Origin: a virus
Lineage: Duplodnaviria; Caudoviricetes
Reading direction: 5' to 3' (one strand)
DNA length: 26,030 nucleotides
IMG/VR virus record: IMGVR_UViG_3300029319_003723
Coordinates: 1 to 26,030 of that record
Shown: in pieces, positions 1 to 25,037 of the stretch
How the letters are laid out: each line of letters opens with the position of its first letter
Position numbering within the stretch: the stretch's first letter is position 1
Program-made: the position numbers and the translations under genes
The notes under the pieces: generated by a model
The model's database searches: none
What the model was told of the DNA's origin: nothing
Seen by the model: only the letters and a program-made list of their open reading frames with translations

Positions 1-692
1 CTAAAAGCCTTGGAAGCATTACCAAGAATAATATCTACTGATTGGTTTTTAAGATCCTGCCAGTCTTTTGCCATCTGTTGCTCTCTAGCTTTAAAGCCTT
101 TATCAACAGTGTCCAAAACTCTCAGTCTCATCTTGAAACGGTCGCTGCCACCAAGAAGCTGTAGATCTTTACGTCCCTCTCTGGTGGCATCAAAACCCAT
201 ATACTTGCCGCCCAACCAAGCTGCATCGTCATGCTGGAATCCACCAATCTTAATATATGTAGGCAATCCATCAGCGGTGTTAACGCCGTGGTGTACGCTC
301 ATCATGCTACCATAGCTAGGCCACTTGGAGCTTGTGCCAGCACCAAAGTTAGCCTCGCCAGTAACTACCCAGTGTACGGAAGATGCATGGTTTTGATCTC
401 TATGACCAAACGCTCTAGGAATGACGATCTTATCTGTGCGTTTTGCTAGTTCTTTAAACAGTCCGCCAACCTCGATACCCTGAACATTGGTTTTAATTGC
501 ACCAGTTACAGACCGCCTATCAGCAGGAGCAAGAGGTATAGGATTAAAAGTCTCAATATGACTAGCACCACCATTAAGGAATAAAAATAAAACTGCCGGA
601 TCATCTACCTGTTTCTCATTTGCGATAGTTGCTGTCACGTTACCAAAGGCGTATGTTCCTACGCCAAGTTTAACAAAATCTCGTCTCTTCAT
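1..692 (-). CDS. DUF1501-family protein with twin-arginine (Tat) signal; 3' end runs off the window
   Basis: Not in the ORF track. Manual translation from ATG at 692: MKRRDFVKLGVGTYAFG...VLFLFLNGGASHIETFNP...RAFGHRDQNH...WPSYGS, open to the edge. RRDF is a Tat motif; LFLxGGxSHxETFxP and PSxGS are typical of Planctomycete-type DUF1501 proteins. AGGA RBS upstream. Confidence 0.85.
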   Translation of the reverse strand, partial: MKRRDFVKLGVGTYAFGNVTATIANEKQVDDPAVLFLFLNGGASHIETFNPIPLAPADRRSVTGAIKTNVQGIEVGGLFKELAKRTDKIVIPRAFGHRDQNHASSVHWVVTGEANFGAGTSSKWPSYGSMMSVHHGVNTADGLPTYIKIGGFQHDDAAWLGGKYMGFDATREGRKDLQLLGGSDRFKMRLRVLDTVDKGFKAREQQMAKDWQDLKNQSVDIILGNASKAF

Positions 693-714
693 TTTGTTTA
701 TCCTGTTGTAAAGA

Positions 715-1755
715 TTAACCCGGAGCTTCGTAAAAGCCAATATTAAAGTCCGGGGCTGTTCGTTTTTTCACCACCTCATCTATGCCAAGCTGAACTAGTT
801 CCTTCTCTATAGTTATACACATATTATCCGTCTCGCCTTCAAAGCTGTTCTTACAAAAATGACATAAATATTTACATCTAAAGTCAGTTCTGGTGGGATC
901 TAATACAGATGGATTGGTATTTTGTCTAATTTCTTCTACCCGCTTCCTGAGCATACCTAGAAATCTGTCTTCATCTTCCTTGGTAAAACAGAAACTATAC
1001 GGTGTAGGATCTGGTTCCCCTTCAGTATCTTTATAGAAAAAAATACTCATAATTCTATTGGGGAAATCAGGAAACATCTTGGACATGGCGTAAAAATACA
1101 GCAATAACTGTGGGTCATTCATCATTTTTTCGTAGGTTTTTTCTTCGCCACTAGACCAATTTAGACGACGACCGCTTTTCCAGTCAACCACCTCAATCGT
1201 ATCTTCGTCAAGAAGTGTAACAAGGTCAATCGTGCCCTTGATAGCCAACTGCCCTTTTTGGGTGTTTCCGTTAGCATCTACGAAGTCGAACTTTGCCCAA
1301 TCTTCCTCGATTGGTAGGTCAAAATGTGGCTCTGGATAGTAGACATTTCTGAGTCTAGGATCGAATTGACCGTCATTGTGAGTAAGAAACGTATATACTG
1401 TATCTCTTACTTCCTGTCGCTCTTTGCGATAGAATTTATGGGCAGATGTTTCACCATAATCTTTGATGGATCTTTCGATCAATTCGTCTACAAAAGTGTC
1501 AGTATAGAGATCATCCTTGCTAACTCTGACTTTGCCACACTTGTCATCTTCAATTTCTAGCCATTTTCTACGAGGATTATCCTGTTGAAACTTTTTAAGT
1601 CCAGCAAGAATCTCCATGACTTTATGGGCCATAGTTCCCATGTCTGCTCGTTTGCCGCTAGAACCTCTCCAACCTAAATTGTAGGTGATGAAATACTGCA
1701 TTTGGCAAAAATCATAATTGTTATACGATGAACTTCTAACATAGGTTACTAGCAT
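715..1755 (-). CDS. PD-(D/E)XK exonuclease, RecB/Cas4-like, probable Fe-S cluster
   Basis: N-terminal SSYNNYDFCQMQYF, GTMAHKVME, catalytic E...KGTIDLV...VVDWKSG, QLLLY motif, C-terminal CKYLCHFC cluster. Confidence 0.85.
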   Translation of the reverse strand: MLVTYVRSSSYNNYDFCQMQYFITYNLGWRGSSGKRADMGTMAHKVMEILAGLKKFQQDNPRRKWLEIEDDKCGKVRVSKDDLYTDTFVDELIERSIKDYGETSAHKFYRKERQEVRDTVYTFLTHNDGQFDPRLRNVYYPEPHFDLPIEEDWAKFDFVDANGNTQKGQLAIKGTIDLVTLLDEDTIEVVDWKSGRRLNWSSGEEKTYEKMMNDPQLLLYFYAMSKMFPDFPNRIMSIFFYKDTEGEPDPTPYSFCFTKEDEDRFLGMLRKRVEEIRQNTNPSVLDPTRTDFRCKYLCHFCKNSFEGETDNMCITIEKELVQLGIDEVVKKRTAPDFNIGFYEAPG

Positions 1756-22641: not shown

Positions 22642-22702
22642 CGTCTTGGCTGTTTATTATGCAGTCGTTTAACCTGACTGTTAACCAAGAATGTGTAAAA
22701 AA

Positions 22703-22857
22703 TGGAAGGGTGGGATTTACTTTTTACCCACAAATCGGCACTATTCCAAGTAGTGCAAGTGGCCTTTTACTCCTATCTCTCTGGTCAGGCAGTTGCCCCT
22801 TCCTCAAGATTCGGATACCTTATCGGGCTTGGACCCCCGATTATTCAGTCACCTTCC
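22703..22857 (-). ncRNA. Expanded tRNA-like structured RNA (155 nt), family unknown
   Basis: GGAAGG/CCTTCC-A closing stem; ACTGAAT...TAAGGT D-arm-like flanks; GCACTA/TAGTGC arm; GTGGG/CCCAC T-like stem directly abutting the closing stem; no credible minus-strand ORF. Confidence 0.6.
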
Positions 22858-22886
22858 TATGGGTGGGAGCTACCCACTCCATATAT

Positions 22887-23811: not shown

Positions 23812-23840
23812 ATTATATTCTACGAATCACGATTTGTCAA
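23812..23840 (-). promoter_or_regulatory. Consensus sigma70-type promoter
   Basis: Minus strand TTGACA (23840-23835), 17-nt spacer, TATAAT (23817-23812), followed by ATAGTA. Confidence 0.85.
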
Positions 23841-23848
23841 GTGGTTTT

Positions 23849-24382
23849 TCATAAATTTTCAAACTTTTCTGCGGACTCAATCAATGGAAAGTTACACAGA
23901 TATTTTTTAGGAAAAAACCGAAACTCAATCCTGTCATCAATCTGTTTAAGTATTTCATTGTACCCATCACCCCACATGCACGACTTAGGTGAAGAGACAT
24001 TAGTGTAATAGATTTCATATATACCACATTGCCAGAGCATTTGTAGGCATCCTCGGCATGGGATAGCTGTAATATACGCTCTTGCGTTCACCGTAGATTG
24101 TCCTTCGCGGGCCGCATTATAAATAGCGTTTGCTTCTGCATGTATCATAAACGGATACTTAGCAGGTCTTGTATTGGGCAACATGAAATCATCTATACCT
24201 CTGATGAAACCATTATAACCTGTTGCTATAATTGTTTTATTCTTTACTAATACGCAACCGCACTGTGTTTCGGAATCATGACTCTTACGCGACCACAAAG
24301 TTGCAGTTGCAAAGAACATATTATCCCAATCATCAGGTCGATTCTCTTGCATTAGATAAGACAATATAAGTTTCTCTGACAT
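23849..24382 (-). CDS. dCMP deaminase
   Basis: IATGYNG, IHAEANAI, PCRGC zinc-binding motifs. Confidence 0.93.
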   Translation of the reverse strand: MSEKLILSYLMQENRPDDWDNMFFATATLWSRKSHDSETQCGCVLVKNKTIIATGYNGFIRGIDDFMLPNTRPAKYPFMIHAEANAIYNAAREGQSTVNARAYITAIPCRGCLQMLWQCGIYEIYYTNVSSPKSCMWGDGYNEILKQIDDRIEFRFFPKKYLCNFPLIESAEKFENL

Positions 24383-24399
24383 AATAATCTCCGAATAAA

Positions 24400-24636
24400 G
24401 CCCGTTTGGGTAATAAGGTCGGGCAACACCCCAGACAGCTTACGCCGCCAAAGCTAAACAAGGTTCAGCAGTTAAAATTTAGTCAGCTTTTAACGAGGCC
24501 AACTGACCAACCTCGACATGCAGTTATTACCTACGCAACCAGTCGATACCATTACGCCCCCGTAGTTTGGGAATGGAGGCGGCGAGAATCGAACTCGCGT
24601 CCTGCATTGTTTCAATAACAACGTCTACATGCTTAG
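24400..24636 (-). ncRNA. ssrA: tmRNA gene, circularly permuted (two-piece)
   Basis: Acceptor piece first (about 24636-24574: TAAGCATGTAG...GGAC-GCGAG-TTCGATT-CTCGC-CGCCTCC-A), 12-nt intervening segment (24573-24562), then coding piece from 24561 (GGGGGCG-TAATGGTATCGAC, PK1, tag ORF 24469-24440 AEPCLALAA*). The acceptor stem has the G3-U70 alanine determinant. Confidence 0.93.
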
Positions 24637-25037
24637 TCTTTCTTACGAAAGAACTTCTTTATTTGTTCAGGCATGGATTTCATTTTATCCTTGCCCATAT
24701 CTGTCAATGTATAGTAAAAGTTACCATCCTCTCCGATTAATTGGTCTACATATCCTTTATTCATGAGTTCCATAACGGCCTGCTGTATTCCATCCTGTAA
24801 TAATTGCATTTCTTTTTTAAGAAAACCTAATATCAAAGGTTCTTCATCAAGATCAAACTCAAATATGTCATAAGCTGTTTCGCTATACATCTTGGGGTCT
24901 TGATATGTATTTTTTTCTAATTCATTAACATAATCCAATGCTTTTTCAAGAGTTGAGCATACACTAACTGGTTCTACTGAAAAGTTAGTGAGAACTTTAC
25001 CCTCTGCTGTAATCGAAACGATAACATATACTTTCAT
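24633..25037 (-). CDS. Hypothetical protein, possible C-terminal winged helix
   Basis: ELMNKGYVDQ...YYTLTDMGK resembles a wHTH wing; its stop codon overlaps the start of the tmRNA acceptor piece. Confidence 0.65.
   Translation of the reverse strand: MKVYVIVSITAEGKVLTNFSVEPVSVCSTLEKALDYVNELEKNTYQDPKMYSETAYDIFEFDLDEEPLILGFLKKEMQLLQDGIQQAVMELMNKGYVDQLIGEDGNFYYTLTDMGKDKMKSMPEQIKKFFRKKD

Follow-up and report, generated by a model that had tools for sequence, protein, structure and literature searches.

The window analysed here, a stretch of 26,030 nucleotides, is an IMG/VR virus record with an estimated completeness of 16%. Its long genes lie on the minus strand and serve replication or the metabolism of nucleotides (primase, DnaB, RecA, ribonucleotide reductase, PhoH, MazG, SSB, dCMP deaminase and ThyX); a related record, G011, comprises 166,833 bases and is rated complete. 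The minus strand of the window also carries a circularly permuted tmRNA gene, which extends from a short upstream hairpin to the end of the last pseudoknot (24400–24652, with the ends taken from the alignment). In its tmRNA mode, ARAGORN returned a permuted tmRNA (tmRNA*) at 24349–24663 of the minus strand with the tag peptide AEPCLALAA, and the Rfam model RF04321 (tmRNA_permuted) matched 24440–24632 with 88.6 bits against a gathering score of 47 (E 4.6e-16). These two calls and a direct reading of the sequence agree on the permuted order, with the 3′ tRNA-like part first, that the original prediction had given, and the tag called by ARAGORN is the one proposed there. The junction is real, since a 103-kb contig from another, independent assembly (L102) is identical to the window across the tmRNA gene; this identity, and the recurrence of the permuted order in 40 distinct sequences, rule out a misassembly.

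Upstream of the tmRNA gene is a gene for a 134-aa protein with no assigned function (24633–25037, minus strand), the stop codon of which abuts helix 2 of the tmRNA. A weak homologue of this protein (47% over 32 aa) precedes the one-piece tmRNA gene of another locus, L163. The downstream neighbour is a dCMP deaminase gene (23849–24382, minus strand; PF00383, phrog_174), and such a gene lies next to the tmRNA gene in many relatives. A manA RNA was detected just after the SSB gene (22700–22877, minus strand; 59.5 bits against an Rfam cut-off of 55.2). When the window and L163 were compared by blastn with 50,697 phage records, only short matches to the T arm or to a pseudoknot were found.

All parts of the gene are on the minus strand and are given here in the order of transcription. 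The short hairpin 5′ of helix 2 (24637–24652) is followed by the acceptor-piece strand of helix 2 (24603–24632), the T arm with 5 bp and a 7-nt loop (24582–24598), and the 3′ strand of the acceptor stem (24581–24575) with the discriminator A24574, which together span 24574–24581; no CCA is encoded after the discriminator. A 12-nt intervening sequence (24562–24573), evident from the sequence and predicted from known two-piece tmRNAs to be excised, leads to the 5′ strand of the acceptor stem (24561–24555) and a D-loop-like segment, which span 24542–24561 and were located from the sequence and the Rfam alignment. Among relatives the intervening sequence measures from 5 to about 123 nt. G1 of the acceptor stem is at 24561, where the coding piece is predicted to start, and the G3-U70 pair is 24559/24577. 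The coding-piece strand of helix 2 (24516–24541) was placed by covariation; beyond it are pseudoknot 1 (24482–24515), the ARAGORN-called tag reading frame AEPCLALAA with its stop codon (24440–24469), helix 5 with the stop codon in its loop (24434–24449, from folding), and pseudoknot 2, the last one (24400–24433). The T arm, the acceptor stem with G3-U70, the discriminator A, the 12-nt spacer, the lack of an encoded CCA and pseudoknot 1 at 24515–24482 had all been predicted and were borne out.

Covariation was analysed in an alignment of 28 of the 40 distinct permuted sequences, those of full length with a short spacer. Over 54 named base pairs, 98.1% of the cells were paired and 25 of the 54 pairs had changed on both sides. 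Shuffled controls gave 89.4% paired and 11.0 ± 1.8 such pairs, and none of 500 shuffles was as high, although related sequences can exceed such shuffles even without a structure; controls with slid pairings fell to 38–47% paired. Compensatory changes were spread over nine of the ten helices. The 7-bp acceptor stem is 100% paired with four of seven pairs compensatory and G3-U70 in 28/28 sequences, the T arm is 100% paired with three of five pairs compensatory, and both stems of pseudoknot 1 are 100% paired at nine counted pairs, seven of them compensatory. In helix 2 the three segments are 100, 98 and 91% paired (28 sequences) and eight pairs have changed on both sides; the outer three pairs of helix 5 are 100% paired, and the stems of pseudoknot 2 are 100% and 92% paired with one compensatory pair each.

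Two of the pairings first proposed had to be revised. Helix 2 does join the two pieces as predicted, but its middle register was wrong: the pairing 24622–24615/24523–24530 is better, with 26–28 of the 28 sequences paired per position against 20–28 for the register three bases over, which covariation rules out. Likewise, a second pseudoknot is present but its first stem had been misplaced. The corrected stem 1 (24433–24429/24418–24414) is paired in 28/28 sequences at all five pairs, whereas the earlier stem, paired in 10–28 of 28, is ruled out by covariation; stem 2 is 24424–24421/24403–24400. The hairpin just before helix 2 (24652–24637) had been missed altogether. It folds in all 40 permuted sequences, the sequences themselves being unrelated, and a hairpin is found at the same place in most of 19 one-piece relatives; alone it has a z score of −1.9. 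It is likely what is left of the stem that closes the pseudoknot ring, and the acceptor piece may have its 5′ end there. When the gene was folded freely over its entire length, the result was mildly better than shuffles (z −2.3), the weak score being an expected effect of the pseudoknots.

By score, the gene of the window is of the permuted tmRNA kind and is outside the three lineage families. The standard one-piece model RF00023 matched in two pieces of swapped order with 34.9 and 26.5 bits, both below threshold, and since membership of that family is one continuous match above its gathering score of 47, the gene does not belong to it. The three lineage models, which the original prediction had proposed as checks together with ARAGORN, were all below their cut-offs: 47.7 bits for alpha_tmRNA (RF01849; gathering score 50, a shortfall of 2.3 bits), 76.5 for beta_tmRNA (RF01850; gathering score 84), the best-scoring of the three, and 51.6 for cyano_tmRNA (RF01851; gathering score 70), the last over model positions 56–120 only. 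All of 14 permuted relatives exceeded the RF04321 gathering score. None passed the beta or the cyano cut-off, while six passed the alpha cut-off with 52–73 bits, mostly through matches to a portion of that model. Other permuted genes in viral contigs pass the beta or cyano models at 95–150 bits. The gene is compact and two-piece, as predicted, but to call it minimal goes too far, since a cyanophage-type permuted gene (L029) has 242 nt including its spacer and the size range given for tmRNAs in a review is 230–400 nt (PMC3968760).

Two-piece tmRNAs in phages were known before, contrary to the premise of the original prediction that phage tmRNAs are one-piece. A two-piece ssrA was reported in the Methylophilales phage Melnitz by a study in which 53 of 133 unique phage tmRNAs were called two-piece and such genes were tied to the alpha, beta/gamma and cyano host lineages (Buchholz 2022, PMC9004378); early phage tmRNA cases were catalogued by Hudson (2014, PMC4131195), and permuted genes of other types were also present in the viral contigs used here. 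According to a review, two-piece tmRNAs have fewer pseudoknots and retain tagging (PMC3968760). The genes of Melnitz, Mosig and cyanophages resemble that of the window in being permuted ssrA genes of large aquatic phages, and in the record of Pelagibacter phage Mosig, as in the window, the gene is near thyX; however, the Mosig core is only 50–54% identical to those of the family of the window. Gene order and tRNA-like domain are also shared with RF04321 (Nawrocki 2025, PMC11915505), the seed of which holds only alpha, beta and cyano sequences, whereas the window passes none of the models of those three lineages. The betaproteobacterial two-piece tmRNA (RF01850) has a pseudoknot 1, a tag and a pseudoknot after helix 5 as in the window, but the sequences of helix 2 and pseudoknot 1 differ. 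The literature that we searched gave no description of this clade, and three supplements of Buchholz (2022, PMC9004378) have no Planctomycete entry; bacterial-bin entries in the tmRNA database (PMC11915505) may already include it.

Relatives were collected by pattern scans over viral contigs, metagenomes (37 stretches) and species genomes (1 stretch), which yielded 40 distinct permuted sequences, some of them partial, and 19 similar one-piece sequences. Three further permuted genes were found later (L024/G040, G045 and G051). The single match in 185,579 species genomes, which were scanned with one exact pattern that diverged copies would escape, was L071 (VFHP01000007.1), a 153-kb phage-like contig in a SAR202 bin. 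Its tmRNA gene equals that of the 167-kb viral record G011, and the contig is likely misbinned. A scan with a pseudoknot 2 pattern gave two loci, both already known. A search for RecA homologues found 714 relatives, and RecA and DnaB were each matched in 18 of 33 tmRNA-bearing records. For a sample free of any RNA pattern, the best 80 DnaB relatives led to 29 longer records, 28 of which were scanned: three carried two-piece genes, four full-length one-piece genes (351–358 nt) and two compact one-piece genes (277 nt), and in the remaining 19, mostly fragments, no tmRNA gene was found. The size of the whole family is estimated at about 2,500 stretches.

Several other loci came to light in these searches. 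The DnaB match in two near-identical records (L193/L194, that is G019 and G010) contains one in-frame TAG. In L063, around 2284–2543 of the minus strand, the T loop of a one-piece viral tmRNA is apparently split by a long insert that may be a group I intron. The GenBank phages L169 (PV340856.1), L170 (OR576727.2) and L171 (PP885688.1) have tmRNA genes that are unannotated in those records. Synechococcus phage Sf-FS3 has a permuted tmRNA gene and Myxococcus phage Mx1 a one-piece gene; in Tunturiibacter phage Tunturi_5, tmRNA-like ends occur in permuted order and ARAGORN makes no call.

The phage family contains one-piece genes as well, either full-length (351–381 nt) or compact (259, 277, 277 and 283 nt). 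In the larger RNA set, the nearest neighbours of the four compact genes are permuted genes of the family. The likeness extends to one-piece genes of the RF00023 seed: the rows BX294141.1 and CP001744.1, although in one piece and 380 and 361 nt long, have by eye a pseudoknot 1 very like that of the window, and the tag AEENFALAA of the former resembles the tags AEENFALVA and VEENFALAA of the family. We take these rows to be Rhodopirellula baltica and Planctopirus limnophila, respectively. Mean identity points the same way for the permuted genes. With the cores of 24 permuted genes of the family put in standard order, the mean is 61% against nine one-piece genes of the same phage family and 59% against a further 15 one-piece viral genes that are similar; it falls to 52% against 11 permuted types from elsewhere and to 51% against four outgroups. 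L171 is labelled a one-piece outgroup in the RNA trees, a label that may be wrong. In the smaller tree set, the 13 nearest non-members of the permuted genes are all one-piece.

Phylogenies of the RNA itself bear on this with less power. The trees have about 200 columns and are poorly resolved, known types are represented by phage sequences, without cellular Planctomycetota or alpha- or betaproteobacterial sequences, and in the larger tree the 3′ piece of G051 is 6 nt short. Plasmid records, searched for Planctomycete sequences to include, yielded none. In the free trees the permuted genes of the family do not form one clade, and in the larger tree three members adjoin other permuted types (support 81/66). 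The AU tests, which are underpowered on such data, did not reject a single clade of all permuted genes (p 0.31 for the smaller set and 0.18 for the larger) and rejected no other grouping either in both sets. The independent permutation in a phage lineage that had been predicted thus has the missed cut-offs and the one-piece neighbours on its side, but a shared origin is compatible with these tests. On balance, the sequences argue that this permutation probably arose apart from those of the three known two-piece lineages, and the gene was likely permuted within the phage family and not taken from one of those lineages. A one-piece gene of Planctomycete type would have entered the phage family and then lost pseudoknots 3 and 4; the permutation would fall between pseudoknot 2 and the last hairpin, and the permuted gene would afterwards have moved sideways between phage branches.

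How often the order changed within the family is a further question. In the tree of RecA and DnaB, G020 and G025, the genes of which are one-piece (259 and 352 nt, respectively), branch among carriers of the two-piece form. The DnaB tree, built from 24 phages with the near-duplicates G019 and G009 and the distant G030 excluded, has at least five changes of form on well-supported branches, a count that does not tell gain from loss, and rejects a single clade of two-piece carriers (p 1e-23). In this tree the one-piece carrier G046 and the two-piece carrier G045 are sisters (100/100), and G044 is placed among two-piece carriers. It is possible, but we hold it only tentatively, that the family switched order several times, either by multiple permutations or because the compact one-piece genes are two-piece genes that were rejoined. 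Besides the tree, this reading is favored by the compact one-piece genes, in which the same region is missing and which have the permuted ones as nearest neighbours, and by the D and T loops of L134, L153 and G051, which are unlike those of the main group. However, sideways exchange would account for this pattern with a single event, a single origin of the permuted genes of the family was not rejected (p 0.25 for the smaller set and 0.37 for the larger), and the outgroup G021 too has a compact one-piece gene.

Sideways exchange of the tmRNA gene between phage branches is indicated by G013, in which RNA and marker identities disagree: its tmRNA is 90% identical to those of G011 and G012, with marker proteins that are only 49–50% identical, but the tmRNA of G013 is 62–64% identical to those of its own marker sisters. 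The contigs are metagenomic, and such discordance could include chimeras. Two genes found later have features of their own. In G045 (L293 1070–1311, plus strand) the spacer repeats the acceptor 3′ end of the gene, in the manner of a footprint of integration or duplication. In G051 (L292 1501–1691, minus strand) the spacer is just 5 nt; its tRNA-like half is like those of L134 and L153 while pseudoknot 1 and the tag are like those of the main group, which suggests that the gene is a mosaic.

A precedent for rejoining is the mitochondrial tmRNA of Jakoba libera, for which a reversion from permuted to standard order has been published (PMC11915505). The compact one-piece genes may be a parallel, although the jakobid RNA is mitochondrial and without a tag frame. 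That these phages represent a fourth bacterial-type two-piece origin in a family that holds every stage, with repeated switching that includes a return from two pieces to one, may be entertained but is less likely than not. To our knowledge, such a return has been described so far only for the jakobid mitochondrion.

Two other origins of the gene are less probable still. It could have arrived already permuted from the alpha, beta or cyano lineages or their phages, or be a mosaic that took its tRNA-like half from one of them. This agrees with the failure of the AU tests to reject a shared origin, with the beta model being the best of the three lineage models (76.5 bits) and its pseudoknot 2 motif being similar, and with the six relatives above the alpha cut-off. 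We consider it unlikely, since identity to the known permuted types (52%) is no higher than to unrelated outgroups (51%), and pseudoknot 1, helix 2 and the tags match those of the Planctomycete-type rows and of the one-piece genes in the family. It is more doubtful yet that the permutation arose in an unsampled cellular host lineage from which the phages merely acquired the gene. The host is known by inference only and the genome scan with one exact pattern misses diverged copies, which leaves room for this reading, but the single match in 185,579 species genomes is phage-like, the compact one-piece forms sit in the phages themselves, and both Planctomycete-type rows examined are in one piece.

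The host itself is likely to be from the Planctomycetota. A DUF1501 gene at 3–740 (minus strand) in the window is a phage-borne member of a family common in Planctomycetota, and its protein groups with clusters in which Planctomycetota is the most frequent phylum; this grouping and the likeness of the RNA to the Planctomycete-type rows are the grounds for the assignment.

Returning to the gene as one permuted within the phage family, the cutting and action of two-piece tmRNAs are established for other lineages, and the steps proposed here follow them by analogy. The gene would be transcribed within a longer phage message, from which the tmRNA is likely cut: there is no consensus promoter directly 5′ of the gene, and two perfect sigma-70 promoter matches (12/12) lie downstream of it at 23840–23812 and 22583–22556 of the minus strand. 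These two are likely early phage promoters, and L071 has a comparable site after its tmRNA gene. Host RNase P would cut at G24561, the 12-nt trailer would be trimmed to A24574, and CCA would then be added. The products would be an acceptor piece, 62 nt long or about 82 nt if the hairpin is included, and a coding piece of about 162 nt. Three contig sets compared with the gene for signs of expression did not extend over it. The two pieces would stay paired through the acceptor stem and helix 2, and alanyl-tRNA synthetase would charge the acceptor piece through G3-U70. Together with host SmpB, the charged RNA would enter stalled ribosomes and add the protease tag (A)AEPCLALAA, so that the predicted product is a pair of RNAs that rescue stalled ribosomes. 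No SmpB gene was found in 14 phage records, three of them near complete. For the phage the likely gain would be extra capacity for rescue during the breakdown of host messages. The hairpin at 24637–24652 falls within the final codons of the 134-aa gene, and we may speculate that a cut 5′ of it would leave the message of that gene without a stop codon, as a substrate for the tmRNA itself. That the RNA serves as a decoy, by binding SmpB or by diverting the trans-translation of the host, with no rescue for the benefit of the phage, is very unlikely: in phage DS6A a form reduced to the tRNA domain inhibits the tmRNA of the host (PMC4131195, PMC11915505), but relatives throughout this family keep the tag frame with its Ala-rich tail, the resume context and pseudoknot 1 while codons vary, and a decoy would need none of these.

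In summary, two-piece tmRNAs in phages were already known; the gene of the window is outside the three lineages by score and belongs to a phage family of mixed gene forms. The gene provides a marker for uncultured large phages that probably infect Planctomycetes, and some records of permuted tmRNA that come from bacterial bins, such as SAR202 here, can belong to phage contigs. Two-piece tmRNA arose more than once, with loss of pseudoknots, and we know of no intermediates in the known two-piece lineages. In the phage family, one-piece genes of 351–381 nt, one-piece genes of 259–283 nt and two-piece genes coexist among close relatives. The family thus makes it testable, both in vitro and by comparison, whether the pseudoknot ring was lost before or after the permutation and what is gained by opening the ring, and it likely offers insight into the way in which rearrangements of this kind come about.
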